Assembly (NCBI GenBank): GCA_021296315.1
Contig: JAGWAO010000009.1
Location: 1,976 to 43,892, forward strand
Direction: 5' to 3'
Source: Acidimicrobiia bacterium
GTDB taxonomy: Bacteria > Actinomycetota > Acidimicrobiia > Acidimicrobiales > Aldehydirespiratoraceae
Length of the DNA stretch: 41,917 bases
Shown one piece after another: positions 4,311-33,474 of this stretch; within the stretch, counting starts at the first letter, position 1, and the number at the start of each line of letters is the position of its first letter. The notes under the pieces were generated by a model that saw only the letters and a list, made by a program, of their open reading frames with translations, was not told where the DNA came from and did not search any database. A program made the translations under genes and the position numbers.

Positions 4311-4353
4311 CAGCTGATCCGGCCTTCCGGAGGTGCCGGGTTGCTGGCGTCAC

Positions 4354-5948: not shown

Positions 5949-5956
5949 GCTCTGCC

Positions 5957-5992
5957 CCTGACCCGGCGGGCACCAGTGCCCGCCGGGTCAGG
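5957..5992. terminator. Perfect 17-bp inverted repeat downstream of the substrate-binding protein gene (mRNA-stabilising or attenuating hairpin)
   Basis: cctgacccggcgggcac-ca-gtgcccgccgggtcagg; no U-tract; intra-operon position. Confidence 0.65.
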
Positions 5993-6004
5993 CTAGTTGT
6001 CGAT

Positions 6005-7186
6005 CTAGTTGACGAACCGGTTGGAGATCACCGTCGAAGCGTCGACTGAGTCCGTGAGGATGCCGAGCTCGGTGGCCTGGTCGGCCACATCCTGGATTGT
6101 CGGCACGTCGCACCAACCCATTCCGTTCTCGGCGACCCCGGGACCGTTGGTCTGCATCTGGATGCGGTAGTCGATCACCGCGAGGTTGCGATCCATGTTG
6201 TCGGCGCCGACCGCGTAGCGGGAGCCGATCTCAGCCGCAGCCTCAGGGTTCTCCTGGATCCAAACCTTGGCCTTCTCCAGAGCATCGATGAAGCGGGCTA
6301 CACCGTCCTCGTTCTCATCGACCCAGCTCCGGTTGGAGAAGTACACGTCGTTAGGGCCTGGCACCTGCGTGTACTGCCAGATCTCGTAGTCGTCGATCTG
6401 GTCCTCGGGGATGCCGCCCGCCTCGAGCAGGGCCCAGTTGATGGAGCCCCATGTCGACGCGGCCTGGGCGTTCCCGCTCAGCAAGGCCTCTCCGAAGGCG
6501 ATACCGGTGGCCGCGAAGGTCACGTCGTCCTCGGTGACGCCGTTGTCCGCGAGCAACAGCGCGGCGTACCACTTGCTGGTGGAGGCCTGCGACGTCACCG
6601 CGACGGTCTTGCCCTCCAGGTCCGCCGGCGACTCGATGCCGGCTGCGGTGTTGACCAGCATGGTCATCCAGTTCTGCGTGTACGGGCAGTAGATCCCCTC
6701 GAGTTCGGCGCCCGCGATCGTGGCGAAGAAGCCGGACAGGGCGTCGGCCATGGCGATGTCGGCGTTGCCAGCGACAAGCTGCTTCACGGCGTCACCAGCG
6801 CCGGCTCCCGGAAGCTGTTCAAGGGCCACGCCTGCTTCCGCGAAGTAGCCGTTCTCCTCGGCCACATACAGGTCGATGAAGTCGATGAACTTGCCTCCAC
6901 CCCACGTGACCAGCCGGATGTCGATCGGCTCGGGGGGAGCCGCGGGCTCTGGCTCTGGCTCAGCCGCTGGTTCCGGTTCCGGCTCGGGCTCAGCTGCAGG
7001 CTCGGGCTCGGGCTCAGCCTCAGCCGCTGGTTCCGGTTCCGGCTCGGGCTCCTCAGCGGGTGCCGGGGCCGGGGCCGCGGGCTCTTCGTCGTCTCCACAG
7101 GCCGTGAACAGCAAGGCCGCGGCCAACGGCACCGCCAGCCAGCGCAGCCGGCGCAGTCCCGTGGACCGATTCGTGGTCTCGTTCAT
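6005..7186 (-). CDS. ABC substrate-binding lipoprotein, NMT1/THI5/SsuA family, with Pro/Glu linker
   Basis: ATG 7186 with RBS GGAGGGAG; signal peptide and lipobox LFTA-C; (EP)n/AA repeats; YVAEENGYFAEAG and IESPADLEGKTVAV. Confidence 0.9.
   Translation of the reverse strand: MNETTNRSTGLRRLRWLAVPLAAALLFTACGDDEEPAAPAPAPAEEPEPEPEPAAEAEPEPEPAAEPEPEPEPAAEPEPEPAAPPEPIDIRLVTWGGGKFIDFIDLYVAEENGYFAEAGVALEQLPGAGAGDAVKQLVAGNADIAMADALSGFFATIAGAELEGIYCPYTQNWMTMLVNTAAGIESPADLEGKTVAVTSQASTSKWYAALLLADNGVTEDDVTFAATGIAFGEALLSGNAQAASTWGSINWALLEAGGIPEDQIDDYEIWQYTQVPGPNDVYFSNRSWVDENEDGVARFIDALEKAKVWIQENPEAAAEIGSRYAVGADNMDRNLAVIDYRIQMQTNGPGVAENGMGWCDVPTIQDVADQATELGILTDSVDASTVISNRFVN
6940..7090 (-). repeat. Coding low-complexity repeat (PAAEPEPEPE)n
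   Basis: ggctcg/ggttcc hexamers; a 31-bp block is repeated at 6961 and 7021. Confidence 0.85.
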
Positions 7187-7217
7187 GATGGTCTCCCTCC
7201 GGTATTGAGACTGGCAA

Positions 7218-7248
7218 ACTCTATATGAAATCATCAATCGGATGTCAA
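7218..7248 (-). promoter_or_regulatory. Candidate sigma70-type promoter for the transporter operon, overlapping an AT-rich operator-like site
   Basis: TTGACA (7248-7243), 19 nt, then TAGAGT (7223-7218); includes ATGAAATCAT and CTATATGAAA. Confidence 0.5.
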
Positions 7249-7278
7249 CTCCGCGCGTCTGTGGCATGATGGGGCGCT

Positions 7279-7956
7279 GTGAGCTCATTCGAGAGGCCGA
7301 AGACCGCTCAGGAAGCCGTGCTCGCGGAGATCCGCGAGCAACTCCTCGACGGCCGGCTCGCGCCGGGTGGGTCCATCCGCCCGGACGCATTGGGCGACGA
7401 GCTCGGAGTGTCAGCCGTGCCCGTGCGAGAAGCGCTGCGGATCCTCGAAGGCGAGGGCCACGTTCACTACCGACCCCACCGGGGCTACGTGGTGGCGACC
7501 CTCGATGTGGACGACCTGATCGAGATATACCGGATCCGGGAACTCCTCGAGACCGAGGCCGTGGGCCGAGCCATCCCGCGGCTGCGGGGCGACACGGTGG
7601 CCCGCCTGCGTGAGGTCGTCCGCGAGATGGACGCGGTGCAGGACGACGTCATCTCCCTGACCGCGGTGAACCGGTGGTTCCACTTCACCCTGTTCGAGGC
7701 GGCGGAGATGCCCCAGTTGGTGCGAGTCCTGCGGATCCTGTGGGACTCCTCGGACCGCTACCGCCTGCGCTACCTGATGTCGCCCGAGAACCGCCAGCTC
7801 GTGCACGAACAGCATCGGAGGATGATGCAGGCCGTCGCCGACAGGGATGTCGAGACGTTCATCGACGAGAGCCAGAAGCATCGGGCCCACGCCATTGCGG
7901 CGCTCGCCGAGGCGTTCGCGGTGGACGAGATCGAGGTCGAGCAGAAGACCGCCTGA
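7279..7956 (+). CDS. GntR family (FCD domain) transcriptional regulator
   Basis: wHTH ELGVSAVPVREALRILEGEG; FCD-type NRWFHFTLF and HEQH. Confidence 0.93.
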   Translation: MSSFERPKTAQEAVLAEIREQLLDGRLAPGGSIRPDALGDELGVSAVPVREALRILEGEGHVHYRPHRGYVVATLDVDDLIEIYRIRELLETEAVGRAIPRLRGDTVARLREVVREMDAVQDDVISLTAVNRWFHFTLFEAAEMPQLVRVLRILWDSSDRYRLRYLMSPENRQLVHEQHRRMMQAVADRDVETFIDESQKHRAHAIAALAEAFAVDEIEVEQKTA

Positions 7957-20146: not shown

Positions 20147-21391
20147 GTGGTTCGACACCGCTCCGATCAAGACTCCGGGGTCTGCGACGACACCGCGGAG
20201 CAGGCCGAGTTCAGGGCCAGAGTGCGGTCCTGGCACGATCGCCACGCCACTGTTCGGTCTCACGACGACCTGTGGAGGGTGCCGCTCTACGTCGACGAGG
20301 CCCGGGCCGAGGAATCCTTCCAGAACGGGAGGGCCTGGCAGCGCACCCTGTTCGAGCACGGCTGGGCCGGGCTCACGTGGCCCCGCGCCTACGGCGGGGG
20401 CGGGGGCGAGCCCTGGCAGGCCCGAATCTTCTCCGAGGTGGCGGCGGGCTACGAGGAGTGGCCCGGTTTCATCGGCGCGACCATCGCCATGCTCGGACCC
20501 ACGCTGCTGCGCCACGGCACCGAGGAGCAGAAGCGCCGTTTCGTGCCCGGCCTCCTGTCGGGGGAGCTGGCCTTCTGCCAGCTGTTCAGCGAGCCGGGCG
20601 CGGGGAGCGACCTGGCCGGGCTGGCCATGCAGGCCCAGCGCGACGGCGATGAATTCGTGGTGAACGGCCAGAAGGTGTGGAACTCCCAGGCCCAGTTCTG
20701 CGACTGGGGGTTCCTGCTGGTGCGGACCGATCCCGACGCGCCCAAGCACCGGGGCATCACCTTCCTTCTCGTGGAGATGGGCTCGCCGGGGATCGAGGCC
20801 CGACCCCTCGTGCAGATGAATGGCTCGGCCCACTTCAACGAGGTCTTCTTCGACGACGTGCGTGTACCGGCGGCCAACGTGGTGGGCGATGTCGACGGGG
20901 GCTGGGGACCGGCCCGCGCGGTCCTGCTCAACGAGTCGGCCTTCATCGGCGACCGCAGGGGGACGAGCATCATGGCACCGCTGTCGGAGCTGGCCCGCCG
21001 CCACGGCCGGCTCGGCGACCCACTCGTGCGTCAGCGGCTGGTCGACGCTTGGGCCCGCGAGCGGATGCAGGGCTGGATGGGCGAGACCATCCAGAACGCG
21101 GTGCGCCGGCGCGAGCCGCCCCCCATCGACCCCGGGATCATGAAGCTGTTCGCCGCCGAGTCGAAGCGGCGCAGCGGCGACTTGGCCGCGTCGCTCGGCG
21201 GCCTGGCCGTGGTGGCCGACTGGAACGAGCCGGCCCGATGGGCCCGCCACGAGCTGATGGGCCGGTACGCGGTCTCTATCGGCGGCGGGACCGACGAGGT
21301 GATGCGCAACAACGTGGCCGAGCGGGCCCTCGGCCTGCCCAGGGAGCCCAGCGTCGACAGGAATGTCCCCTGGCGGGACATTCCCCGGTGA
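20147..21391 (+). CDS. Acyl-CoA dehydrogenase
   Basis: CQLFSEPGAGSDLA, NGQKVWNS, FNEVFFDDV, IGGGTDEVMRN. Exact start uncertain. Confidence 0.93.
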   Translation: MVRHRSDQDSGVCDDTAEQAEFRARVRSWHDRHATVRSHDDLWRVPLYVDEARAEESFQNGRAWQRTLFEHGWAGLTWPRAYGGGGGEPWQARIFSEVAAGYEEWPGFIGATIAMLGPTLLRHGTEEQKRRFVPGLLSGELAFCQLFSEPGAGSDLAGLAMQAQRDGDEFVVNGQKVWNSQAQFCDWGFLLVRTDPDAPKHRGITFLLVEMGSPGIEARPLVQMNGSAHFNEVFFDDVRVPAANVVGDVDGGWGPARAVLLNESAFIGDRRGTSIMAPLSELARRHGRLGDPLVRQRLVDAWARERMQGWMGETIQNAVRRREPPPIDPGIMKLFAAESKRRSGDLAASLGGLAVVADWNEPARWARHELMGRYAVSIGGGTDEVMRNNVAERALGLPREPSVDRNVPWRDIPR

Positions 21392-21404
21392 TCACGCGGA
21401 GACC

Positions 21405-21554
21405 CCAGGGGCTGCGCTGACGGGCGGGCGTCCGTCGCGATGCGGCGGTGTCACTCCCGCTCTTGTTCGCTGCGCTGACGGGCCGCTCGGGCCACGGCCT
21501 CACTCAGCGCTGCCACAACGCCCCCGACTCGCCGCCTACCCGCTCGGCCTCTAG
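21405..21554 (-). repeat. Dispersed element, copy E
   Basis: CCAG 21405-21408; core 21454-21503 (4 mismatches); cgctcggcctctag 21541-21554. Confidence 0.9.
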
Positions 21555-22415
21555 GGCCGGGATCACGCCGTAGGTCACGCCGAGCCGGCTGAGCCAGCGT
21601 CGATAGGCGATCGCGGAGCGGTCGGCCCGGATCGGGGTCTCGGCCCGGGGGTCCAGCGGCAGCAGCTTGGGGTGCTGGTTCTCGAGTATGGGCTTGTCCT
21701 GGGCGATCACTTCCTGCTGGAAACGGCGGATCTGTTGGTCGGCGCTCACCTGGTCGAGCACGCTGAGGAACAGGTGGGCCCTGATGCGGGTGTCGGTGAG
21801 GGGGTGGATGAAGATGCCGATGGCATCCATCCGGTCGGCATCGGACGGCGACGACTTGTAGAGCATGGCGCTGTAGGGGTGGGGCACCCGGTAGATGTAC
21901 TCGGCCAGCACCGCCTGCGAGGAGGCCGCCGCGGCGCGCGGCTGGTAGAAGACGCAGTCGACGGCCCAGAGCTCACCGTCCCGCTCCTCGACTCGGTACT
22001 CGGCCACCTCGGTGTGGGGCTCCTCGCCGAGCACCCCGGCATGAACGTAGGGGAAGTGAGCCATGTCCAGGAAGTTCTCCACCGCCCGCGGCGCTGAGAC
22101 CTGGATGCCGACGGTCAGCGCGTTGAGGGTTCGCCGGTCGTCCTCGTAGGTCTCGGGAACGGCGAACACGCCGCCGTCGGGCTCGCCGAGGGTGGTCCAC
22201 AGGTACCCGTAGTCGGTGCGAACCTCGAGCTCGCCACCGCTCTCGGTCCGGGCCCGGGCCGTTCCGTCATCGTCGATCCAGCACGTCAGAGGCGCGCCCA
22301 GAAGCAGGGTGCGCAGCGGGCCGCGGCGGATCTCGTTGAGATCGGCCACCGCGTGCCACTGATTCAGGATCACCGGATCGGAACAGCTCCGGGTTCCGGT
22401 CTCTGCCATCGTCAT
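21504..22415 (-). CDS. Rieske-domain-less non-heme iron oxygenase, NdmC-like (methylxanthine N7-demethylase-like)
   Basis: Mononuclear Fe motif ENFLDMAHFPYVH and QDKPILENQ; YIYRV.HPYSAMLYK; P.RAD..A.AYRRWL; no CxH/CxxH Rieske ligands. Matches NdmC architecture as recalled. Confidence 0.8.
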   Translation of the reverse strand: MTMAETGTRSCSDPVILNQWHAVADLNEIRRGPLRTLLLGAPLTCWIDDDGTARARTESGGELEVRTDYGYLWTTLGEPDGGVFAVPETYEDDRRTLNALTVGIQVSAPRAVENFLDMAHFPYVHAGVLGEEPHTEVAEYRVEERDGELWAVDCVFYQPRAAAASSQAVLAEYIYRVPHPYSAMLYKSSPSDADRMDAIGIFIHPLTDTRIRAHLFLSVLDQVSADQQIRRFQQEVIAQDKPILENQHPKLLPLDPRAETPIRADRSAIAYRRWLSRLGVTYGVIPALEAERVGGESGALWQR

Positions 22416-22490
22416 GACAGCCTCCGCTCGAGCTTGCCGCCGCCACAGTAGGCGAATGTCGGCTCGCGACGCGATCCGGCTATGGACCCA

Positions 22491-23516
22491 TCAGGCGGAG
22501 CCGACGTAAGCGTCCAGTTCGGACACCCAGGCCTGCCTCTGGGCCTCGGGCGCGAAGCAAGCCTCGAAGCTGTTGCGGGCGCAGCGGGCCAGTTCGGCGC
22601 GCGAGAGGTTCAGGGCTTGCGCCACGGCCAGGTAGTTGTCGGCCACGTAGCCGCCGAAGTAGGCGGGATCGTCGGAGTTGACGGTGACCTTGAGCCCCGC
22701 GTCGAGCAGGCGCTTGAGGTTGTGGTCCGCCAGGTCGTCGACAACGCACAGGGCAAGATTCGACAGCGGGCACACCGTCAGCGGCGTTTGCGCGGCCACC
22801 AGCCGGGCCACCAGGTCGGGATCCTCCTCGCAGCGCACTCCATGGTCGATCCGCTGCGCGCCGAGAGCGTCGAGGGCCCCGGTGATGTACGCGGGCGGCC
22901 CCTCCTCGCCGGCGTGGGCCACCGGCCGCAGCCCGGCGGCCCGGGCCATGGCGTAGGCCTCGGCGAAGTCCTCGGGCGGATGGTCGACCTCGGAGCTGTC
23001 GAGCCCCACGCCGATGATGTCGTCCAGCCAGCCCCCGGCGGCCCGGAAGGTGTCGCAAGCGGCTTCGCCGGGAAGGTGGCGCAGGAAGCACATGATCAGT
23101 GCGGAGGAGATCCCGCATCGGGCCTCGGCGTCGGCCATGGCGGCGGTGAAGCCCGCCATGAACACGTCGAAGCCGACACCGCGGGAGGTGTGGGTCTGGG
23201 GGTCGAAGAACATCTCGGCCCGCCGGACGCCGTCGGCGTGAGCCCGGTGCAGGTAGGCGGCCATCAGGTCGTAGAAGTCCTGGGGCGTCCGCAGCACGGC
23301 CGCGCCCTGGTAGTAGATGTCGAGGAACGACTGGAGGTCGGTGAACGAGTAGGCGGCCCGGACCGCGGCCTCGTTCTCGAAGGGCAGCTCGACCCCGTTG
23401 CGTCCGGCAAGCTCGAAGAGCATCTCGGGCTCCAGGGTCCCCTCGATGTGCAGGTGCAGCTCGGCCTTGGGCATTCCCCGCACGAAGCCGGCCAGTTCAA
23501 CGTCGCCGATCGACAC
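22491..23516 (-). CDS. Adenine deaminase (ADA family, COG1816)
   Basis: PKAELHLHIEGTLEPE, YSFTDLQSFLDIYY, EMFFDPQTH, AHAGEEG, RIDHG, CPLSN, NSDDPAYFGGY. Confidence 0.92.
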   Translation of the reverse strand: MSIGDVELAGFVRGMPKAELHLHIEGTLEPEMLFELAGRNGVELPFENEAAVRAAYSFTDLQSFLDIYYQGAAVLRTPQDFYDLMAAYLHRAHADGVRRAEMFFDPQTHTSRGVGFDVFMAGFTAAMADAEARCGISSALIMCFLRHLPGEAACDTFRAAGGWLDDIIGVGLDSSEVDHPPEDFAEAYAMARAAGLRPVAHAGEEGPPAYITGALDALGAQRIDHGVRCEEDPDLVARLVAAQTPLTVCPLSNLALCVVDDLADHNLKRLLDAGLKVTVNSDDPAYFGGYVADNYLAVAQALNLSRAELARCARNSFEACFAPEAQRQAWVSELDAYVGSA

Positions 23517-23549
23517 CGCTCCCTCCCCTGTTCACCTCGAAACTGGCGC

Positions 23550-24599
23550 TCAGCCGGCGCCGTTGCGGGCCGGCAGGCCGTAGCTGGATCGCAGCTGGTC
23601 GAACTCGGCCTCGAAGCGGCTCCGCAGAGCGGCCTTCTCGTCGTCGGGTGCCCAGCAGGCGGTGATGCCGTCGAGGCTGATCTGCTCCATTTCCTCGAGG
23701 CTGTAGTCGAAGGCGCCGACCACGGCCGCGTACTCGTCAGCCACGTCGAAGCGCATCATTCCGGGGTCGTCCGAGTTGAGGGTGGCCAGCACGCCCAACT
23801 CGCGCTGGCGGGCGTAGGGATGCGAGGCCACATCGGGTACCACGTTGGCGATCATCACGTTCGACGTGGGGCAGACCGTCAGCGGGATCCGCCGGTCGAT
23901 GATCTCGGCCGTCAGCTCAGGGTCGTCGAGCAGCCTGAACCCGTGGTCGACCCGCTCGCAGCCGAACTCGCGCACCGCCAGGGCGATGTTGTCCGACGGC
24001 CCGTCCTCTCCGGCATGCATGGTCCGCTTGAGCCCGTGGCGACCGGCGGACTCGTAGGCGGCCGCGAACGGCCGGTGGTCGACGCGCTCCACCGAGTCGG
24101 CTCCCATTCCGATCAGCAGGTCGCGGTCCTGGGCCCCCGCGAAGTCGGCCATCTCCAGGGCGTGGCCCCCGCCGGAGGGCTTGTCGAAGTCGAGGATCAT
24201 GCGGCAGCCGATGTCGAGGTCGGCCCGTGCGTCGATCACGGCGGCGGACACGCCGGCCCACACCGTGGAGACCGGAACTCCCAGCTTGATGACGAATCCG
24301 GGCGAGAAGAACATCTCCCGGTAGCGCACGCCGGCCTCCACCGCGTCCTCGAGGCACTCGTAGGTGATCCGGTGGAAGTCGTCGGCGGTCTGCAGGCTGG
24401 CGCAGACCACGGCGTAGATGTCGAGGAACTGGTTGAGATCGGTGAAGTGGTAGAGATCGGCCGGGTCGTCCACCGGGAACGTGACCCCGTTGGCTTGAGC
24501 CAGCTCCTTGATGGTCCCCGCCCGGCTCGCCCCCTCGATGTGGCAGTGCAGCTCCACCTTCGGCAGGCGCCTCACATGCTCCTCGGTCGCGACGGTCAT
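23550..24599 (-). CDS. ADA-family deaminase, second paralogue (divergent specificity)
   Basis: PKVELHCHIEG, EMFFSP, MHAGED, RVDHG, CPTSN, NSDDP. Confidence 0.9.
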   Translation of the reverse strand: MTVATEEHVRRLPKVELHCHIEGASRAGTIKELAQANGVTFPVDDPADLYHFTDLNQFLDIYAVVCASLQTADDFHRITYECLEDAVEAGVRYREMFFSPGFVIKLGVPVSTVWAGVSAAVIDARADLDIGCRMILDFDKPSGGGHALEMADFAGAQDRDLLIGMGADSVERVDHRPFAAAYESAGRHGLKRTMHAGEDGPSDNIALAVREFGCERVDHGFRLLDDPELTAEIIDRRIPLTVCPTSNVMIANVVPDVASHPYARQRELGVLATLNSDDPGMMRFDVADEYAAVVGAFDYSLEEMEQISLDGITACWAPDDEKAALRSRFEAEFDQLRSSYGLPARNGAG

Positions 24600-24615
24600 G
24601 ATCCTCCCCGGTGGC

Positions 24616-25602
24616 TCAGCGTTCCTCGCGCGCGTACGGGATGGCCAGCGCGGCCGGCGCGGCGGTGGATCTCACCCGTCTACCAAGCTTCACCGCCCCT
24701 GCTGGGATCAGGATGGCGACCAGCGTGACCACATAGGGCAGCATCGACAGGAAGAAGCTGAGGTCGCTGGCTCCCATGAACGGCAGGCCCCAGCCCCGGG
24801 CCTGGGCGGTGGTGTCGAGCGAGATCATCGACCCGTACAGCAATGCTCCGGCCACGGCCCACCCCGGCCGCCAGCCGGCAAAGATGACCACCGCCAGCGC
24901 GACCCAGCCCCGGCCCCGGGCGATGTCGGGCGACCAACTGGGAGTAAACGCCAGAACCATGTACGAGCCCGCAGCTCCCGTCAGAGACGCGCCCAACACC
25001 GAATAGAAGATCCGCCAGCCAGTCACGCTCACACCCACCGCGTCGGCTGCGGCCGGGTTCTCGCCCACGGCCTTCATGTTCATGCCGTGGCGGGTGCGGA
25101 ACAGCACGAACCACAACACCAGCGGCAGCCCGACGTAGGCGATGTACACGATCGGGTCATGGAAGAGGAACGCCGACATCAAGTCGTTGTTGTCGAGCAC
25201 TCCGCCTGGGTTTACCTCCCGGAACAGCGTCTTGATCAGCGTGCCGTTTCGATTGGTGCCCAACTGGTTCGAGAGCCCGATGCCACCGAGGGCCAGCGCC
25301 AGTCCGACCAGCACCTGGCTGGCACGAAAGGCCACTACGCAGACGGCGAAGACAAGGCCGGCCACCGCGGCTGCGATCATGCCGATGAGCATGGCCATCC
25401 AGGGGCTCTGCACACCCCACGACAGAACCGCGATCACCGAGTACACGGCGCCGATGCCGATGAGTCCCTCCTGGCCCAGGTTGAGCACCCCGACCCGCTC
25501 GCCGAGCATGGCCCCCGTGGCGGCCAGCACCACCACCGTGCTGGCCGGGATGGCGGAGCCGACCAGGCTCAGGAAGGCATTCTCGATGATGGCAAGGATC
25601 AT
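24616..25602 (-). CDS. Nucleoside-type ABC transporter permease
   Basis: ERVGVLNLGQEG, GENPAAADAVGVSV, GRGWVALAVVIF, APAAL..PY.REER. ATG 25602 overlaps the upstream TGA. Confidence 0.92.
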   Translation of the reverse strand: MILAIIENAFLSLVGSAIPASTVVVLAATGAMLGERVGVLNLGQEGLIGIGAVYSVIAVLSWGVQSPWMAMLIGMIAAAVAGLVFAVCVVAFRASQVLVGLALALGGIGLSNQLGTNRNGTLIKTLFREVNPGGVLDNNDLMSAFLFHDPIVYIAYVGLPLVLWFVLFRTRHGMNMKAVGENPAAADAVGVSVTGWRIFYSVLGASLTGAAGSYMVLAFTPSWSPDIARGRGWVALAVVIFAGWRPGWAVAGALLYGSMISLDTTAQARGWGLPFMGASDLSFFLSMLPYVVTLVAILIPAGAVKLGRRVRSTAAPAALAIPYAREER

Positions 25603-26792
25603 GAGCCTGCCCCCTCGGAGGCATGGTCCGCTGCCACGGCGTCGCTCCCGGTACCAGTCTCCTCGGTGTCGCGGCGTGCGAGTCGATAGCGGGCCGCTAT
25701 CTCGCCCAACGCGATGCCCGTGAGAATCACGCCATAGCTGGCGAAGATGATGTACACCGACAAGCCCTTGGTCTGTAACAGCACCCCGGCGTAGAACATC
25801 GCGGCGATGCACACACCTCCGCCCATCACGCCCCAGAACGAGGCGCCGGCGAGCGCGGCCACGATGAAGCCCGACAGCCCGAACTGGGCTGAGAACCCAG
25901 CGTTCATGGCCTGCGCGCCGGGAGCGCTCAACTGGAGCATCCCACCAAGGCCGGCGATGGCGCCGGTGAACAGCATCACCACCATGATCCGGCGTCGCAC
26001 CGCGATACCAGCGAAGCCGGCAGCCCGCGGGTTGCCCCCGATCGTGTCGACCTCATAGCCGATCGTCGTGGAGCGGAACACCCACCAGAGCGCGGCGGCG
26101 ATGATCACAGGAACGAACAGGGCGATGGTGACCGACTCTGCCCCGGGAATCTTCTCCAGGATGACGGGGACCCTCTCGGTGGATCGGATGACCGCGGACT
26201 CCCTGTCCCGCCAGAACCCCAGTGAAGCCCAGACCACCAACTGAAAGGCCACAAAGTTCAACAGCAGCGTCGTAATGATCTCGTTCACGTCCAAGTAAGC
26301 CCGGGCCAGTGCAGGCACGAGGATCCATGCCGCTCCGGCCAGGGTGCCCGCCACCGCCATGACGATCAGCACCAGCCATCCGGGGCCGTTCATATGGATG
26401 CCCACTCCCACCGCGGCCAGGCCCCCCATCAGGAACTGGCCATCAGAGCCGATGTTCCACACCTTCATTCGCAATGACAGCGCCACGCCCAGCGCGGTCA
26501 TCAGGATGGGTATGGCTCGCAGGGCCACGCCCTCAATGCCGCGCTGGCTGCCGAGAATGGAGTCGAGCGCCTGCCAGAGGATCCAGAAGGCATTGCGCCC
26601 GGTGAGTAGCAGCAGGATCCCGACCACGACCATCGCGCTGACCGCACCGCTGATGCGGGAGAGCGCGGCCCGCCGGGTGTCGACCTCCAAGCGCCTGTCC
26701 AACCTCCACGGCGTCGCCGAGAGCACCGCTCCGGCAATCGAGCCGAGAGGGGTCATGCCCGCTCTCCGCTCTGCTGAGCGATCGATGCCCAT
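25599..26792 (-). CDS. Nucleoside-type ABC transporter permease
   Basis: WNIGSDGQ, VNEIITTLLLNFVA, GGNPRAAGFAGI. Start ATG 26792 or 26756. Confidence 0.9.
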   Translation of the reverse strand: MGIDRSAERRAGMTPLGSIAGAVLSATPWRLDRRLEVDTRRAALSRISGAVSAMVVVGILLLLTGRNAFWILWQALDSILGSQRGIEGVALRAIPILMTALGVALSLRMKVWNIGSDGQFLMGGLAAVGVGIHMNGPGWLVLIVMAVAGTLAGAAWILVPALARAYLDVNEIITTLLLNFVAFQLVVWASLGFWRDRESAVIRSTERVPVILEKIPGAESVTIALFVPVIIAAALWWVFRSTTIGYEVDTIGGNPRAAGFAGIAVRRRIMVVMLFTGAIAGLGGMLQLSAPGAQAMNAGFSAQFGLSGFIVAALAGASFWGVMGGGVCIAAMFYAGVLLQTKGLSVYIIFASYGVILTGIALGEIAARYRLARRDTEETGTGSDAVAADHASEGAGS

Positions 26793-26799
26793 TCCGGTC

Positions 26800-28332
26800 T
26801 CACCGCGATGCCTCCGCGGGAGTGTGGCCACCCATGAGCAAGCCGAGGTACTCACGGTCGGCATCGGCTGCGTCGAATACGCCCATGATCCGTCCCTCGT
26901 ACATGACCGCGATGCGATCGCTCATCAACAGCACTTCGTCAAGGTCGTCCGAGATCAGCAGCACCGCGCATCCTCCGTCGCGCTTGTCGAGGACGGTAGC
27001 CCTTACCTCTTGGGCCGCGTTCACATCGAGCCCTCGGGTGGGGTGGGCCGCCACCAGCAGCCGATCCGCGGCCAGAGCCTCTCGCCGGGCCACCAAGCGC
27101 TGCTGGTTGCCGCCCGAGAGCTGCCCTGCCGTGGCGAACACCGAGCGGGTCTGCACGCGGGCCGCCTCCACCAGCCGCTTGGCGAAGTCGATCACTTCCT
27201 GGCGGTCGAGGGTCAGACCCTGGGAAAAGGCCTCGGTCCAGTAGTTGTGCAACACCGCATTGTTCTTCAGCGGCGCCGAGAGGACCATGCCCATCCCGAT
27301 CCGGTCCTCGGGGATGTGACCCACGCCCAAATCGGTAACTGCCCTCACCGACATCGATGCGACATCGGCTCCGTCGACCGCTATCGAGCCGGATTGCAGG
27401 TCGCGCAATGAGCAGATGACCTCGGCCAGTTCGGTCTGGCCGTTGCCCGACACCCCGGCTATGCCGAGGATCTCCCCGGCTCGCACGGTCAGGTCCACAT
27501 TGTGCAGTGCCGTAATCCCCCGATCATTGAGAGCCGAGACCCCCCTGAGTTCCAACGTGGACTCCCCGGTAACGACTCGATGCTCGACGCTCAGCAACCG
27601 CTCTTCGCCGGTCATCAGCCGGGCAATCTCGCCGGCGGTGGCCCCCTCCGTCGGCCGGGTGATCTCCCTGATCCCCTGACGCAGCACGGTCAGGCGGTCC
27701 GACACGGCCAGCACCTCCCGCAGCTTGTGGGTGATGAAGATCACGCTCAGGCCACTGGCCGCCAGCTCCCGGACCACCGCGAAGAGCTCCTCGGCCTCCT
27801 TGGCAGTCAGCACTGCGGTGGGCTCGTCGAGGATCAGGACCCGGGCGCCGCGGGCCAGCACCCGCAGGATCTCCACCCGCTGCTGCTCCCCCACCGACAG
27901 CTGCCAGATCTTGGCGGTGGGATCGACGTGCATCCCCATCTCGCTCATGAACCGCTCGGTCCGATCGATCAGGGTCCGCTGGCTGACGACACCGGGGGTC
28001 TCGGGCCAGCCCAGGTGGATGTTCTCGGCCACGGTCATCGGCTCGACCAGCCGGAAGTGCTGGTGGACCATGCCGATGCCGGCGTCGATGGCGTGGGCGG
28101 GAGCGCGAAAGTCGCGCTCGACCCCGTCGACAATCACCTGACCCGCGTCGGCGCGGTAGATGCCGGCCAGGATGTTGCACAGAGTGGTCTTGCCCGCCCC
28201 GTTCTCGCCCACCAGGGCGTGGACCTCGGACCACCTCACCTCGAAGTCGACGGCGTCGAGGGCGGCCACGCCCCCGAAGGCCTTGCTGATGGCCCGCGCC
28301 TCTACCGAGGGCTGTGGGCTGTCGCCGGTCAA
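26800..28332 (-). CDS. Nucleoside/sugar ABC transporter ATP-binding protein (tandem NBD)
   Basis: GENGAGKT, LSVGEQQRVEI, LILDEPT, GVSGNGQ, LSGGNQQ, PTRGLD. Confidence 0.95.
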   Translation of the reverse strand: MTGDSPQPSVEARAISKAFGGVAALDAVDFEVRWSEVHALVGENGAGKTTLCNILAGIYRADAGQVIVDGVERDFRAPAHAIDAGIGMVHQHFRLVEPMTVAENIHLGWPETPGVVSQRTLIDRTERFMSEMGMHVDPTAKIWQLSVGEQQRVEILRVLARGARVLILDEPTAVLTAKEAEELFAVVRELAASGLSVIFITHKLREVLAVSDRLTVLRQGIREITRPTEGATAGEIARLMTGEERLLSVEHRVVTGESTLELRGVSALNDRGITALHNVDLTVRAGEILGIAGVSGNGQTELAEVICSLRDLQSGSIAVDGADVASMSVRAVTDLGVGHIPEDRIGMGMVLSAPLKNNAVLHNYWTEAFSQGLTLDRQEVIDFAKRLVEAARVQTRSVFATAGQLSGGNQQRLVARREALAADRLLVAAHPTRGLDVNAAQEVRATVLDKRDGGCAVLLISDDLDEVLLMSDRIAVMYEGRIMGVFDAADADREYLGLLMGGHTPAEASR

Positions 28333-28359
28333 CTCGGGTCTAAAGAGCTGTAAGCGGGA

Positions 28360-29517
28360 TCAGACGGCGGAGACGCCCGAGACGCCCTCAACCGGGTAGG
28401 TGATCGCATAGGCGTCCAGTGAGCTGAGCGTCTCACCCTCGGCCAACCGCAGCGTGCCCTCGTTGTCATACAGCGGGCCCTCGTACACGTTGAGTTCGCC
28501 GCTGTCGATCCTGGCCGCTTCCGCGGCCACCGCGTCCTGCACGTCCTGGGGAACGTTGGGGCCCCATGCGCCCAGCGGGGTGTCGAGCAGCCAGACATCG
28601 TCCTGCGACACCCAGGTGCCGTCCAGCACCCGCTGGCACTGCTCGATGTAGAACGTTCCGAACTCCGAGAGGTCGAAGTTGTTGACGTACTTGGTGGGCG
28701 CAGCCGAACGGAAGTCGAGGTTCCAGTACCCGGTCCACACTCCGGCCTCCTCGGAGAGCTGAAGGAAGGTGGGCTCGTCCATCACTCCGAACAAGAACCC
28801 CACGCCCGTGTCAAGCAGGGCGTTGGCTGCCTGGGCCGCCTTCTGCGGATCGAAGAACGTGCTCACCAGCACGGTCTCCACGGTTGCGTCGGGATTGACC
28901 GACCGGGCGCCGAGCAGCATGCCATTGACGTCGTTGAACGTTGTGGCCGTGGGGAAGGCACCGATGTAGCCGATCCGACCGTTCTCGGCAAGGTGCCCAG
29001 CAGCCACGCCCAGAAGGTACGCGGTGGTCTCGTGGGCCAGGTAGAACGGCAACACGTTGTCGCTGTAGTAGTGCCCGTTGATCTCGCAGAACTTGGTCTC
29101 TGGATTGGCGTCGGCCACGTCGGTGAGCAACTGGGAGTATTCGGTGTTGGAGAAGATGATGTCGTTGCCGTCGTCCACGAGTTGCTGGAAGACCTGAGAG
29201 GTGGACGAGTCGAAGCCGATATCGGGCGTGAAACCGGTCTCCACCCGGTCGCCGAAGTGAGCCACAACGGCCTTGCGACCCCGGTCATGCTCCTGGCTCC
29301 AGCCGTTGTCATCGGGCGGACCGATGTACACCCAGTTGGCCTTGATCTTGTCCTTGGCGCCCGAGCTCACGTCCTCGTCGTCATCGCCGCAGGCGGCAAG
29401 CAACGAACCACCGACGGCCAAGCCGCCGATGCCGAGAGCCCCCATCTTGAGGGCCTCGCGGCGGGAGACCATGGCGCTGGGTGGCAAGAAAAGCCCGCGA
29501 TTCTTCTGGGTGGTCAT
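28360..29517 (-). CDS. BMP-family nucleoside/purine-binding lipoprotein (Tat-type signal)
   Basis: SRREALK, lipobox LLAA-C, YIGP.DDNGWSQEHDRGR, YLLGVAAG, IGYIGAFP, LGARSVNPDA. Confidence 0.9.
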   Translation of the reverse strand: MTTQKNRGLFLPPSAMVSRREALKMGALGIGGLAVGGSLLAACGDDDEDVSSGAKDKIKANWVYIGPPDDNGWSQEHDRGRKAVVAHFGDRVETGFTPDIGFDSSTSQVFQQLVDDGNDIIFSNTEYSQLLTDVADANPETKFCEINGHYYSDNVLPFYLAHETTAYLLGVAAGHLAENGRIGYIGAFPTATTFNDVNGMLLGARSVNPDATVETVLVSTFFDPQKAAQAANALLDTGVGFLFGVMDEPTFLQLSEEAGVWTGYWNLDFRSAAPTKYVNNFDLSEFGTFYIEQCQRVLDGTWVSQDDVWLLDTPLGAWGPNVPQDVQDAVAAEAARIDSGELNVYEGPLYDNEGTLRLAEGETLSSLDAYAITYPVEGVSGVSAV

Positions 29518-29582
29518 GTCAGGTGCCTTTCCTATTGGCCGCTGTTGTCGTGAGCGGTTGTCCGATGTCTGAGGATGCGATC

Positions 29583-30588
29583 TCAGTCAAGTTGTGCGAC
29601 GAGGGTGTCAAATTCGAGGGCCCACTGGCGGCGCATCGTGCGCTTCTCGGGCTCGCCGAGCCAGGAGCCGTCGATGCCGTTGAGCATGCACTGGCGGAAG
29701 TCCTCCACCTCGAAGCCCATGTGGTTGTGGGCCATGATGTAGTCCGGTGGGGTCGGTCTTGAACATGGGCGGATCGTCGCAGTCCAAGCTGATCTTGATG
29801 CCGAACTCGCGCATCTGGCCGATCGGGTGATTGTCGAAGTCGTCGTTGAAGTACACCCACGCGGTCGACACCGGCGTGCAGGTGAAGACCACGCCCTCGT
29901 CGCGGCAGCGGCGCATGATGGCCTCGCTCTCGACCACGTGGTAGCCGTGGTCGACCCGCTCGCAGTTGAGCAGGTCGAGGCAGGTCTCGATGTTGCGGGG
30001 CGGGGCGTCCTTCAGGTGCAGGCCGGCCCGCTCGGCCATGCGGTAGGCCTTCCAGAACCGCTCGGGCGGGTACTCGGCCTCGGCGTAGTCCATCCCTATG
30101 CCGATCACCTCTTCGCGGGGATGGTCGATGAGCGTCTCCACCATCTCCACCGCCAGTTCCGGCGACTCCATGCGGTTGGCGGCCGCGATCAGGCGGCACT
30201 CGATTCCGTGGTCGGTGCGGGCCGCGTTGATCCCGTCGATCAGCCCGTCAACGCAGGTCTCGTAGTCGACTCCGGCGGCCATGTGGGTCGTGGGGTTGAA
30301 GAACATCTCCCGGTAGCGCACGTTGTGCTCGGCTGCCTCGGTGAGGGTCTCGTAGCAGATGCGCTCGAAGTCCTCCCGGTCGATAATCCCCAGCGCGGTG
30401 TTGTCGTACATGTGGAGGAACTTGTAGATGTCGGGGTAGTCGTAGAGATCCTCGGGCTCCTCGTAGTCCGGCAGGGGAACGTTGTGCTTGTTGCACAGCT
30501 CCACCGCGGTGCGGGCCTGAACCGACCCCATGAGGTGCAGGTGAAGGCTCACCTTCGGTATCGCCTTCAGGAAGGAATCCATGTCCAT
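29583..30588 (-). pseudogene. Third ADA-family deaminase, disrupted (in-frame loss of HxxE plus frameshift)
   Basis: PKVSLHLHLMGS, EMFFNPTTH; GLHL-KDAPP lacks the HxxE segment near 30010. After DDPPMFKTDPT, homology continues in another frame (DYIMAHNHMGFEVEDFRQCMLNGIDGSWL...LD*, stop at 29583). Confidence 0.8.
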
Positions 30589-30604
30589 TAGCGCGTCAAC
30601 TCCC

Positions 30605-32029
30605 GTGCCTAGCTCCGCTTCGCGGACACTACCACTAGCCCACTCATCGCTCGCCAATCGCCCGGAGGCGGATCTGTGCGTGCGGAACGCGGACCTAGTG
30701 GTGACCATGGACGCCGATCGCCGGGAGATTCGGGGTGGTTGGGTGGCTGTTTCCGGCGGATTCGTGACCGCGGTGGGCGAGCCCGCGAGCGAGCCGGCAG
30801 CCGAGCGCACGATCGACGCCCGCGGCTGCCTGGTGACGCCCGGGCTGATCAACACCCACCATCACATCTTCCAGAACCTGACCAGGGCCTTCGCTCCGGC
30901 TCTGGCCGGGGATCTGTTCCACTGGCTGCGCACGCTCTACCCGGTGTGGAGCCGCCTCGATAGCGAGGCCGCCCATGTGTCGGCCTGGATCGGGCTGGCC
31001 GAGTTGGCCCTGGGAGGCTGCACAACCAGCACCGACCATCTGTACCTGCATCCCCGAGGCGGCGGCGACCTGATCTCGGCGGAGATCGAGGCGGCCCGCG
31101 AACTCGGATTCCGGTTCCATCCCACCCGGGGGTCGATGAGCCTGTCGGAGAAGGACGGCGGCCTGCCTCCCGACTCGGTGGTCCAGGACGATGACGAGAT
31201 CCTGGCCGACTGCGAGCGGCTGGTGGGTCTCCACCACGATCCGGCCCCGGGCGCCATGGTGCGCATCGCCCTGTCACCGTGCTCGCACTTCTCGGTCACG
31301 CCCGATCTCATGACTCGCACTGCGGAGCTGGCCGAACGCCTGGACGTGCGGCTGCACACCCACCTTGCCGAGAACGCCGACGACAGCGCCTTGTGCGAGT
31401 CCACCCACGGTTGCCGCCCGGTCGAGTTCCTCGAGAGCGTCGGCTGGGGCTCGGATCGTGCTTGGGTGGCCCATTGCGTGGTTCCGGACGCGGCTGAGAT
31501 CGACCGCCTGGCCGAGTGGGGCACCGGGGTGTCTCACTGTCCCAGCTGCAGCCAGCTGATCGGCCTCGGCGTGGCCCCGATCCGTGAGATGCGAGACGCG
31601 GGCGTGCCGGTGGGCATCGGCTGCGACGGCTCGGCCTCCACCGACTGCGCGTCGCTGTGGCTGGAGACCCGGGGCGCCCTGCTGCTGGCCCGATTGCGGG
31701 GCGGCCCCGAGGCCATGGATGCACGCGAGGCGCTGGAGATGGCGACGTTGGGCGGGGCCGCCTGCCTGGGCCGCGACGACATCGGCGCGCTGGAGCCGGG
31801 GCGGGCCGGCGACCTGGTGGTCTGGCCCCTCGAGGGGGTCAGCTTCGCCGGGGCGCTGTCTGATCCGGTCGAGGCCCTGCTGCGCTGCGGTCCGGTCGCT
31901 CCCCGCCACACGGTCGTTGCCGGCAGATCGCTAGTCGAAGACGGCCAGTTGACCGCAACCGGGGTCGACGAGATGCTGGTCCGTCACCGCCGCATCGCCG
32001 GCGAGTGGCTCGAGGCCGCCGTCGGCTAG
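30605..32029 (+). CDS. 8-oxoguanine deaminase-like amidohydrolase (COG0402)
   Basis: VTMDADRREI, PGLINTHHHIFQNLTRA, GCTTSTDHLY, RGSMSLSEKDGGLPPDSVVQ, PCSHFS, HTHLAE, HCPS, DGSAS. Start uncertain: ATG 30581 overlaps the divergent gene, so GTG 30605 is used. Confidence 0.88.
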   Translation: MPSSASRTLPLAHSSLANRPEADLCVRNADLVVTMDADRREIRGGWVAVSGGFVTAVGEPASEPAAERTIDARGCLVTPGLINTHHHIFQNLTRAFAPALAGDLFHWLRTLYPVWSRLDSEAAHVSAWIGLAELALGGCTTSTDHLYLHPRGGGDLISAEIEAARELGFRFHPTRGSMSLSEKDGGLPPDSVVQDDDEILADCERLVGLHHDPAPGAMVRIALSPCSHFSVTPDLMTRTAELAERLDVRLHTHLAENADDSALCESTHGCRPVEFLESVGWGSDRAWVAHCVVPDAAEIDRLAEWGTGVSHCPSCSQLIGLGVAPIREMRDAGVPVGIGCDGSASTDCASLWLETRGALLLARLRGGPEAMDAREALEMATLGGAACLGRDDIGALEPGRAGDLVVWPLEGVSFAGALSDPVEALLRCGPVAPRHTVVAGRSLVEDGQLTATGVDEMLVRHRRIAGEWLEAAVG

Positions 32030-32103: not shown

Positions 32104-33474
32104 TCACCAGAGAGGCGTGGCCGGGTTGCCCTTGAGGGCCTCGCGCCGCTGGAACAGCTCCTCGGCCGCGGCCTGCGCCTCCGCGGCCACGGCTCCCACA
32201 TCTACGGAGACCACCTCGCCGCCCTGCACCAGGCGGCGGCCCCGTACCCACACGTCGCTCACGTCGTGGGCGTGGGCGGTGAACACCAGATGAGCCGGGG
32301 CGTTGAAGTGCTGTCCGTGCATCACCGGCACGAAGTGAAGGCCCCCGATGTCGACCATGGCGATGTCGGCGTCCTTGCCGACCTCGAGGGTGCCGGTGAC
32401 GTCATCGAGGCCGAGAGCGACCGCACCCGAGCGGGTGGCCATGTCGAGCACGTCCCAGGGATCGGCCGCGACCGGATCGAGCGTGCTGACCTTAGCCAGC
32501 AGCGAGGCGAACTTCATCTCGCCCAGCATGTCGAGGTTGTTGTTCTCCTTCTCGCCGTCGGTTCCCAGCCCGACGGTCATCCCCGAGGCCCGGTAATGGT
32601 CGATCCGGGCCGGACCGGAGGCGATCTTCATGTTGGAACAGGGACAGTGGGTCGCGGCGGTGCCGGTGCGGGCCATCAGCTCAACCTCGCGGTCGTCGAG
32701 CCACACGCAGTGGGCCACGACGGTGCGCTCGCCGAGGATGCCCCGGTTGTAGAACTCCTCGATCGGACGCCGCCCGAACTGGTGCAGGCTCTCCTGCACC
32801 TCCCACACCGTCTCGGATGAGTGGGTGTGGATGCCGGTGTCGAACTCCTCGGCCAGTGCTGCCGCGTCCCTGAACATCTCGGGCGAGCAGTAGAACATGT
32901 GCTCCAACCCCACCCAGGACCGGACCCGGCCCTCCGCGGCGGTGCGGTGGGTCTCCAGCAGGCGCCGGTTCGACTCGAGGGTCTCGAAGTAGTCGTAGCG
33001 GTCGGCGGTGTAGGGAGCCAGCGTGGCCCGGATGCCGATCTCCTCCGCGGCTTCGGCCGACCCTTCCATGAAGCGCCACATGTCGAGCACGGAGGTGGTG
33101 CCGCCGCTCAGGCACTCGGTGTAGGCCATGTAGGAAGCCGCCTTGGCGATCTCGGGGGTCAGCGCCCGGTGGGCCGGGTCGACGTAGTTCTCCAGCCAGT
33201 CGAACAGGGCCAGCCCCTCGGCCGTGCCCCGCAGCAGCCCGGAGTGCAGGTGGGCGTTGTGCATGCCGGGGATCACCACATGGTTGGCCGCGTCGGCCAC
33301 CGGCGCACTCGCGGCGGCGGGATGGGCCGCCACTTCATCGGGCGGCCCGACCGCGGCGATCGTGCCGTCCACCACGAGCACCGAGCCCGGGTCGTGGCTC
33401 ACCCGGCGGCCTTCCAGCGGCAAGACGGTGCCGCCGGAGATGAGGAATGTGGTGCCGTTCGAAGTTCCGCCCAC
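32104..33474 (-). CDS. MtaD/SsnA-like amidohydrolase (MTA/SAH or purine deaminase family)
   Basis: PGMHNAHLHS, GTTSVLDM, IHTHSSE, AHCVW, HCPCSNMK, LGTDG, EVGKDAD. Confidence 0.9.
   Translation of the reverse strand: MGGTSNGTTFLISGGTVLPLEGRRVSHDPGSVLVVDGTIAAVGPPDEVAAHPAAASAPVADAANHVVIPGMHNAHLHSGLLRGTAEGLALFDWLENYVDPAHRALTPEIAKAASYMAYTECLSGGTTSVLDMWRFMEGSAEAAEEIGIRATLAPYTADRYDYFETLESNRRLLETHRTAAEGRVRSWVGLEHMFYCSPEMFRDAAALAEEFDTGIHTHSSETVWEVQESLHQFGRRPIEEFYNRGILGERTVVAHCVWLDDREVELMARTGTAATHCPCSNMKIASGPARIDHYRASGMTVGLGTDGEKENNNLDMLGEMKFASLLAKVSTLDPVAADPWDVLDMATRSGAVALGLDDVTGTLEVGKDADIAMVDIGGLHFVPVMHGQHFNAPAHLVFTAHAHDVSDVWVRGRRLVQGGEVVSVDVGAVAAEAQAAAEELFQRREALKGNPATPLW

Follow-up and report, generated by a model that had tools for sequence, protein, structure and literature searches.

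A stretch of 41,917 nucleotides of an Acidimicrobiia genome (assembly GCA_021296315.1, contig JAGWAO010000009.1, positions 1,976 to 43,892; contig C2:1976-43892 of genome G000 in our numbering, and hereafter the window) carries an oxygenase gene, P0001, of the Rieske-less NdmC family. The genome assembly, 86% complete, totals 2.66 Mb and is split over 83 contigs. We found that P0001 is an unlinked NdmCDE-type catalytic subunit in a nucleoside-import and deaminase operon, and that a paralogue, an NdmD-type reductase and an NdmE-type glutathione S-transferase (GST) are encoded together on another contig, C44. On balance we lean towards P0001 being the catalytic subunit of an NdmCDE-type enzyme that is served in trans by the C44 pair and demethylates a methylated purine or nucleoside. 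An earlier note on this DNA, made from the sequence without database searches, had described an orphan NdmC-like N-demethylase in an actinobacterial purine operon and had left its electron donor unnamed.

The system to which P0001 is compared is NdmCDE of Pseudomonas putida CBB5, which converts 7-methylxanthine to xanthine. In the review PMC4408171, NdmC is described as being without a Rieske cluster, NdmD as having an extra one and NdmE as GST-like and needed for activity, and NdmCDE is called unique among Rieske oxygenases. The same review attributes to Summers et al. 2013 the finding of ndmCDE homologue clusters in 18 organisms, mainly Sinorhizobium and Mesorhizobium, with function unassigned. 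The likeness covers all three components, namely a Rieske-less non-haem-iron subunit, a GST-like protein and a reductase that carries an additional Rieske domain at its N-terminus. Unlike NdmC, P0001 has no linked ndmA or ndmB orthologue, is located away from the reductase and GST, and belongs to an operon of adenosine-deaminase and nucleoside-type importer genes.

P0001 is an intact oxygenase gene that has lost the Rieske cluster

The open reading frame (ORF) of P0001 is intact, starts with ATG and encodes 303 amino acids. Its GC content at codon positions 1/2/3 (0.70/0.47/0.90) is typical of coding sequence, in a window of about 69% GC. VanA_C (PF19112, E 1.3e-22, residues 106-278) is the sole domain assigned by Pfam, which did not find a Rieske domain (PF00355) in the protein, and no NCBIfam model matches it. 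The gene and its sites are:

21504..22415, minus strand: P0001, Rieske-less NdmC-family oxygenase catalytic subunit (VanA_C only by Pfam; fold model; tree clade)
22041..22067, minus strand: codons of D117-x2-H120-x4-H125, the probable bridging aspartate and two iron-binding histidines (family alignments)
21696-21698, minus strand: codon of D240, the third iron ligand (family alignments)
22191..22370, minus strand: vestigial Rieske domain (about residues 16-75), without cluster-binding loops (hhalign and model)

D117, H120, H125 and D240 are invariant in family alignments of 15 and 55 sequences. No conserved Cys/His pair is present in the N-terminal 100 residues of the same alignments, and the C-x-H...C-x-x-H pattern occurs in none of the 87 rows scoring at least 220 bits against the family profile. 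Judged by its sequence, the 2-His-1-carboxylate iron site of P0001 is intact. The description of P0001 in the earlier note, an iron site of this type and no Rieske ligands, agrees with the presence of PF19112 only and with the invariance of H120, H125 and D240.

A sequence search of the PDB with P0001 returned SxtDIOX (E 3e-24), SxtT (5e-24), NdmA (1e-13) and NdmB (4e-11), and the alignments span the E-N-F-x-D-x-x-H-F-x-x-x-H and D-K-P motifs of NdmA and SxtT. The AlphaFold2 model of P0001 (mean predicted local distance difference test score, pLDDT, 87.5; predicted template modelling score, pTM, 0.87) has beta strands at residues 21-74; compared with PDB structures it is closest to SxtT (template modelling score, TM, 0.79), with NdmA at TM 0.68. 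The solved VanA_C-type Rieske oxygenases NdmA, NdmB, SxtT and GxtA have the catalytic fold and iron motif seen in P0001 but carry their own Rieske cluster, whereas the corresponding loops of P0001 are deleted. In hhalign, residues 16-99 of P0001 pair with residues 8-141 of the NdmD-type Rieske domain (probability 94%), and the cluster-binding loops fall in a deletion of about 45 residues in P0001. Because the two regions pair in this way with the loops deleted, the N-terminus of P0001 represents a vestigial Rieske domain. A Rieske domain at the N-terminus of the same polypeptide, by which a classical Rieske oxygenase alpha subunit is recognized, is absent from P0001.

The earlier note had also considered that P0001 might be a truncated remnant of a Rieske-bearing gene. 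We ruled this out: the family is uniformly about 290 amino acids long, strongly conserved and widespread. In addition, the gene is not a truncation because only 75 nucleotides separate it from the upstream gene and its homologues start at the same place.

P0001 is a member of the NdmC family but not an NdmC orthologue

A protein database search with P0001 gave 3,422 matches at E of at most 0.001 among 8,000 scored candidates. Among the matches listed, PF19112 was detected in 120 of 120 homologues (255-312 amino acids) and PF00355 in none of them. A tblastn search of plasmids with P0001 gave 264 records. As a stand-in for NdmC we used the cluster on a Paraburkholderia caffeinilytica plasmid (L091), which consists of two full-length Rieske oxygenases, GntR, a Rieske-less oxygenase, a PDR/VanB-type reductase (PDR, phthalate dioxygenase reductase), a GST, frmA, fghA and a BMP-family ATP-binding cassette (ABC) transporter. 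It is a real ndmABCDE cluster, because its full-length oxygenases match NdmA and NdmB of the PDB at 649 and 689 bits. Over residues 13-285, P0001 and the Rieske-less gene of this cluster share 41.8% identity (E 3e-58). The family profile gives 326 bits for the Rieske-less gene of the P. caffeinilytica plasmid, 322 bits for that of a Klebsiella plasmid and 62-67 bits for NdmA/B-type genes.

A tree was built from 71 rows, which were left from 103 profile matches after removal of 4 partial or non-oxygenase rows and of 28 rows at least 88% identical to a kept one. It results from a quick IQ-TREE search under LG+C20 with Shimodaira-Hasegawa approximate likelihood-ratio test (SH-aLRT) values only, and no bootstrap. 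All 59 Rieske-less rows form one clade (SH-aLRT 99) with two subclades. Subclade A (15 rows, SH-aLRT 90) contains the two caffeine-cluster genes and the first gene of a tandem pair in Rhizobiales; subclade B (44 rows, SH-aLRT 88) contains P0001, both of its paralogues in the same genome and the second gene of the tandem pair. On this tree P0001 is a Rieske-less NdmC-family member that, being placed in the sister subclade, is to be taken as a paralogue rather than an orthologue of NdmC. The earlier comparison with NdmC is thus upheld for the family, by identity and by common clade, and not for orthology.

Two ndm clusters, L091 and that of a Klebsiella plasmid (L093), are genuine or near-genuine. 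A nucleobase:cation symporter gene and a gene for a 2-oxoglutarate/Fe oxygenase are present in both, and insertion sequence elements flank the Klebsiella cluster.

Rieske-less oxygenases recur in a module with a reductase and a GST

One genome per species was scanned for loci of this family; 595 relatives were confirmed and 80 loci kept. They come from Acidimicrobiia, Rhizobiales (Sinorhizobium, Mesorhizobium, Aminobacter, Devosia, Labrys), Paracoccaceae, Granulosicoccaceae and others, so that the two genera named in PMC4408171 were recovered as well. ORF clustering and Pfam reveal a recurrent module in which one or two Rieske-less oxygenases of about 295-300 amino acids are followed by a protein of about 588 amino acids with Rieske, ferredoxin reductase (FNR)-like and Fer2 domains, and then by a GST of about 215 amino acids. 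A Bmp-family ABC transporter and a GntR regulator are usually found alongside. Partner genes were counted by tblastn over the 80 loci and over the 53 loci of at least 14 kb (long loci):

NdmD-type reductase: 70 of 80 loci, 46 of 53 long loci
GST (NdmE-type): 66 of 80 loci, 46 of 53 long loci
Bmp binding protein: 43 of 80 loci, 33 of 53 long loci
GntR: 23 of 80 loci, 16 of 53 long loci
FrmA: 12 of 80 loci, 10 of 53 long loci
FghA: 6 of 80 loci, 6 of 53 long loci
Adenosine-deaminase family: 8 of 80 loci, 8 of 53 long loci

GcvT-family genes are present in 4 of the 80 loci. The Sinorhizobium and Mesorhizobium homologues resemble P0001 in that their second tandem gene is 53-56% identical to it, falls in the same subclade and has a Bmp-family ABC transporter alongside. 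Unlike that of P0001, these clusters keep oxygenase, reductase and GST together, with GntR and often frmA/fghA, and without adenosine-deaminase genes.

Two variations of gene content were seen among these loci. On the S. meliloti megaplasmid (L092) and in most Rhizobiales loci, tandem Rieske-less paralogues, one per subclade, precede a single reductase/GST pair; the two could catalyze two reactions on one substrate or form a mixed oligomer. In the orthologous operons of three Acidimicrobiia loci (L003:5958-6968, L004 and L011), a Rieske-bearing oxygenase takes the place of the middle deaminase gene of the window. It is the closest Rieske-bearing relative of the family, scoring 180-206 bits against the profile and being about 39% identical to P0001.

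Contig C44 holds genes for a candidate electron donor and scaffold

A P0001 paralogue (54% identical), a 614-amino-acid NdmD-type reductase and a GST lie side by side on C44. The reductase has an intact Rieske motif (C53, H55, C72, H75), flavin and NAD motifs and ferredoxin cysteines, with a PDR-type FNR and a Fer2 domain. Its C-terminal half matches phthalate dioxygenase reductase (E 2e-59), and its last 86 residues match the ferredoxin domain of NdmD (PDB 6icm, E 3e-18). The GST gene (L089:11307-11954) follows directly and its product is 83% identical to the GST of locus L008. A third paralogue of P0001 (52% identical), on contig C14, belongs to an operon that also encodes a Bmp ABC importer, a nucleoside hydrolase, a ribokinase-type PfkB and a putative cyclase.

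Contig C2 gave no match to an NdmD-like or GST-like gene and none to a second VanA_C gene, and neither ndmA nor ndmB was found in the window, as the earlier note had stated. A stand-alone Rieske ferredoxin in the window was ruled out as donor, there being no Rieske-domain match on contig C2. However, because a probable donor and scaffold are encoded on C44, P0001 is not an orphan; that description is true only locally. The C44 reductase provides a candidate for the missing donor, and an ndm cluster elsewhere in the genome, which the note had listed as counting against its reading, is present as far as the C-D-E module is concerned. For ndmA and ndmB, the candidates on contig C67 were rejected: three full-length oxygenases searched against the PDB gave SxtT/GxtA and NdmA/NdmB as best matches, at E 1e-39 to 1e-45, and they are not ndmA/ndmB orthologues because SxtT and NdmA match them about equally.

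In the C44 reductase (gene at L089:9374-11218), the linker that follows the Rieske domain also contains about 25 inserted low-complexity residues, rich in Ser and Gly, which are absent from the 18 aligned homologues. The idea that this reductase contains a dead catalytic domain was dropped, as hhalign detected no homology of residues 141-300 to an oxygenase catalytic domain. Directly after the GST, on the minus strand of C44 (L089:11968-12321), lies a 117-amino-acid fragment with an internal TGA that matches only the C-terminal VanA_C; it looks like a remnant of a further oxygenase paralogue.

Oxygenase, reductase and GST co-occur in the genus and are often unlinked

Co-occurrence was examined within the genus, because an order-wide sample contained no further NdmC-like gene (none in 60 other genomes at E 1e-40). 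This comparison covered 30 relatives, 18 congeners and 12 genomes of other families. Oxygenase, reductase and GST are all present in the same 16 of 18 congeners, and none of them in G069 and G073. In the 12 genomes of other families, the oxygenase and the GST were each found in 0 of 12, and one genome gave a generic match to the C-terminal half of the reductase. With presence in 16 of 18 congeners and absence from the 60 genomes sampled over the order, the distribution is very patchy; the identity between Acidimicrobiia and Proteobacteria is nevertheless 53-60%, which suggests horizontal transfer.

A P0001 orthologue (74-92% identical) is present in 13 congeners. In 4 of them (G061, G063, G072 and G076) the reductase and GST adjoin it, directly downstream, and in the other 9 they are not adjacent. 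The operon of L004 is orthologous to that of the window (binding protein 80.5%, deaminase 87% and oxygenase 84.6% identical), and its oxygenase is directly followed by a reductase and a GST, 61% and 76% identical to those of C44. The reductases and GSTs that adjoin orthologues in other genomes belong to a second lineage, and these reductases have 58-66% identity with that of C44. Five of the 9 congeners without adjacency (G065, G066, G068, G071 and G077) are assembled in 1-5 contigs; in each, a distance of 0.6 to 2 Mb separates orthologue and reductase within one contig. Several single-contig congeners (e.g., G066, G068 and G077) possess 3-4 Rieske-less genes and one reductase/GST pair, so one pair probably serves several catalytic subunits.

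These data bear on the question of whether P0001 is a decaying relic whose lineage lost the adjacent reductase and GST, leaving a non-functional oxygenase. The two genes do follow the orthologue in L004 and the four congeners, and in the window a convergent acyl-CoA dehydrogenase gene lies 112 nucleotides beyond P0001. Nevertheless, the ORF is intact with all family-invariant residues present, and the separation in 9 of 13 congeners, including the five assemblies of 1-5 contigs, indicates that the unlinked state is common and maintained. As the complex predicted with the C44 pair (see below) also passes, we regard decay as highly improbable.

Alternatively, P0001 may be functional but take its electrons from a donor other than the C44 reductase, such as another Rieske protein or ferredoxin of the genome. 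Many Rieske-domain genes are present on contigs C67, C21, C23, C76 and C77, the assembly is 86% complete, and the pairs found beside orthologues elsewhere are of the second lineage. By contrast, only one Rieske-FNR-ferredoxin gene and one NdmE-type GST were found in this assembly, and several single-contig congeners have 3-4 Rieske-less oxygenases with exactly one pair. Another donor thus seems to us very unlikely, and the C44 reductase is the one that we infer for P0001.

A three-chain complex is predicted

P0001, residues 1-270 of the C44 reductase and the C44 GST were modelled together with custom alignments. The interface score ipSAE was 0.90 in three runs, and the best of 3 controls reached 0.01. 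In the calibration, 116 of 157 solved complexes and 2 of 215 mismatched pairs came up to the mark used for ipSAE. At least 88% of the contacts are common to the runs, and the partner pLDDT is at least 85. In the model, Rieske loops of the reductase (51-59 and 73-76) touch residues 119-124 and 241-249 of P0001, with His75 of the reductase against H120, and residues 8-9, 31-39, 117-120, 175-178 and 204-207 of the GST are in the interface. The prediction supports binding of P0001, reductase and GST. The placement of the GST has no solved precedent; the structure of NdmCDE is unsolved according to a 2026 paper (PMC13237722).

The scheme suggested by these results is as follows. P0001 would be the mononuclear-iron catalytic subunit of a three-component NdmCDE-type monooxygenase that has lost its own Rieske cluster and for which the NdmD-type reductase of C44 is the most likely electron donor, acting in trans. 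Electrons would pass from NAD(P)H to the flavin, the C-terminal plant-type [2Fe-2S] cluster and the N-terminal Rieske [2Fe-2S] cluster of the reductase, and then by way of His75 of the reductase and Asp117/His120 of P0001 to Fe(II). The role of the NdmE-type GST next to the reductase is probably to keep the components assembled. Three Rieske-less paralogues, on C2, C14 and C44, probably depend on the one reductase/GST pair found in this genome, and two of the three reside in Bmp-type nucleoside-import operons of their own.

The operon suggests a purine or nucleoside substrate

P0001 is the last gene of an operon that includes a Bmp/PnrA ABC importer and three adenosine-deaminase-family genes, with intergenic gaps of 16-90 nucleotides. 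The other genes, from P0001 outwards, and the divergent neighbour are:

22491..23516, minus strand: adenosine deaminase (PF00962 6e-89; NF006850 509.5 bits, cutoff 419)
23550..24599, minus strand: second adenosine-deaminase-family paralogue (PF00962 7e-65; TIGR01430 248.7 bits, cutoff 216.55)
24616..25812, minus strand: ABC permease (PF02653 3e-28; longest ORF, start probably later)
25599..26864, minus strand: ABC permease (PF02653 1e-30; longest ORF, start probably later)
26800..28332, minus strand: ABC ATPase with two ATP-binding domains (PF00005, two stretches)
28360..29517, minus strand: Bmp/PnrA-family substrate-binding protein (PF02608 5e-27)
29608..30855, minus strand: third adenosine-deaminase-like gene, the first of the operon (PF00962 3e-51; TIGR01430 212.1 bits, just below the cutoff of 216.55)
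30581..32029, plus strand: divergent 8-oxoguanine-deaminase-type amidohydrolase (NF006055 607 bits, cutoff 532)

The start of the 29608..30855 gene is probably later, because its deaminase domain begins near residue 93. A promoter and terminator scan of 21200-31200 gave no promoter-like site and one terminator-like site, against 3.2 expected by chance. The earlier note had placed P0001 last in a run with adenine deaminases and a nucleoside importer; order and context are correct, while NCBIfam names the enzymes adenosine rather than adenine deaminases. The context is also, as the note had it, a non-caffeine one, an actinobacterial (Acidimicrobiia) purine/nucleoside operon outside any caffeine cluster.

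N-demethylation is the chemistry favoured by our analysis. Directly beside homologous clusters are genes for S-(hydroxymethyl)glutathione dehydrogenase FrmA (TIGR02818, 589 bits, cutoff 544) and S-formylglutathione hydrolase FghA (TIGR02821, 434 bits, cutoff 282), as in the caffeine cluster; this arrangement points to formaldehyde release, and hence to demethylation. We infer that the substrate is a methylated purine or nucleoside. Four observations suggest this class: 1) the deaminases and importer of the window; 2) the conservation of that arrangement in L001, L002, L003, L004 and L011; 3) the nucleoside hydrolase and ribokinase beside the C14 paralogue; and 4) the BMP-family transporter in the genuine caffeine cluster. 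Most likely, the enzyme would hydroxylate an N-methyl group carried by a purine base or nucleoside that the ABC transporter of the operon has imported, and the hydroxylated product would yield formaldehyde and the demethylated purine. The adenosine-deaminase-family enzymes may act before or after demethylation. Of the earlier proposal that methylated purines are N-demethylated, the chemistry stands as the best supported one and the substrate keeps the status of a conjecture.

A different oxygenation is conceivable. P0001 might hydroxylate the purine ring of hypoxanthine, xanthine or their nucleosides delivered by the adjacent deaminases, as a molybdenum-independent enzyme like HpxDE of Klebsiella. 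HpxD, a Rieske-type purine oxygenase of purine catabolism, contains a Rieske domain and hydroxylates rather than demethylates. The adenosine deaminases of the operon yield inosine or hypoxanthine-type products, HpxD-annotated genes appear among the distant plasmid matches (27.9% identity over 70% of P0001), and no formaldehyde-detoxification gene adjoins the window copy. On the other hand, the NdmC of an ndmABCDE cluster (41.8% identity) is a far closer relative of P0001 than is HpxD, which retains the domain that P0001 has lost, and homologous clusters are adjoined by FrmA and FghA. The window, moreover, already has a xanthine-dehydrogenase-type molybdenum hydroxylase at 36667-40400. Ring hydroxylation is consequently, in our opinion, distinctly unlikely.

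P0001 might also act, as a demethylase or other oxygenase, on a heterocycle that is not a purine or on some other small molecule imported by the Bmp-type transporter; the deaminases would then be neighbours linked to it only through the transporter or a common regulation. Only 15 of 80 loci (13 among the 53 of at least 14 kb) combine the oxygenase with purine-enzyme genes; the closest NCBIfam models for the importer genes of the window are named 'putative B6 ABC transporter'; the C44 module adjoins a GH2-like gene and a cupin; and the Devosia loci contain Ldh_2 and FabV-type genes. Yet two independent paralogues of this genome are in nucleoside-type operons, one with deaminases and the other with nucleoside hydrolase and ribokinase, and the genuine caffeine cluster has a BMP-family transporter too. 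The sole characterized member of the family acts on a methylxanthine, as described in PMC4408171. We judge a non-purine substrate unlikely.

Several points weigh against demethylation of a methylated purine or nucleoside by P0001 with the C44 pair. The low share of loci with purine enzymes is one of them, and nucleosides are not the only compounds handled by transporters of the Bmp family. A formaldehyde-detoxification gene was observed beside none of the three oxygenase copies of this genome. No substrate for the subclade of P0001 or for non-caffeine ndmCDE homologues was found in the literature, in a search to which subscription journals and bioRxiv supplements were external. P0001 lies outside the NdmC subclade, by a split of only moderate support (SH-aLRT 88 and 90), and the comparison depends on the P. 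caffeinilytica stand-in, NdmC of P. putida CBB5 itself being in neither the PDB nor the tree. P0001 does not share a contig with the reductase and GST genes in this 83-contig, 86%-complete assembly, and a second pair or another donor may be in the missing portion. As for the complex, custom alignments and three chains differ from the set-up of the calibration, and part of the pass may come from likeness, because the Rieske and catalytic domains meet in the model much as they do between subunits in solved Rieske oxygenases.

Other features of the window and of contig C67

The molybdenum hydroxylase (36667-40400, plus strand) is located 14 kb from the oxygenase and consists of a 497-amino-acid fusion, FAD-binding and then [2Fe-2S], followed by a 747-amino-acid molybdopterin subunit. 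A second amidohydrolase (32104-33474, minus strand) adjoins the 8-oxoguanine-deaminase-type gene; it is of the TRZ/ATZ / 5'-deoxyadenosine-deaminase group and below all NCBIfam cutoffs. At 3324-7390 on the minus strand are a luciferase-like monooxygenase and an NMT1-type ABC transporter, a combination that recurs twice by the C67 oxygenases.

Contig C67 contains an oxygenase hot spot at 44000-78000 (L094 and L095), with four full-length Rieske+VanA_C genes and one Rieske gene of another type, among which luciferase-like monooxygenases and NMT1-type ABC transporters are scattered. Directly upstream of a Rieske-bearing gene in this region is a Rieske-less VanA_C gene of a second kind (L094:9046-9906), with 27% identity to P0001.

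Implications

Summers et al. in 2013 reportedly flagged the ndmCDE homologue family as uncharacterized. Our results give the non-caffeine NdmCDE homologues a testable context of nucleoside-type importers, purine deaminases or hydrolases, and formaldehyde detoxification. They also indicate that catalytic subunits can be scattered in a genome and share one reductase/scaffold pair.

Taking the family of more than 3,400 database homologues as a whole, we put forward, as a tentative and rather doubtful proposal, that methylated purine nucleosides are scavenged by a system of hub-and-spoke design. Several subunits, each specialized for another methyl position and placed in its own nucleoside-import and deaminase or hydrolase operon, would draw on a single reductase/GST pair, and the substrates could be compounds such as methyl-adenosines or methyl-guanosines from RNA/DNA turnover or from marine hosts. 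If true, this would amount to an unrecognized and widespread catabolism of modified nucleosides in marine Acidimicrobiia and in soil and marine Proteobacteria. Should the substrates be methylated purines or nucleosides, the enzymes would fill a gap in the bacterial recycling of modified nucleic-acid bases and would offer position-specific N-demethylases for biocatalysis.

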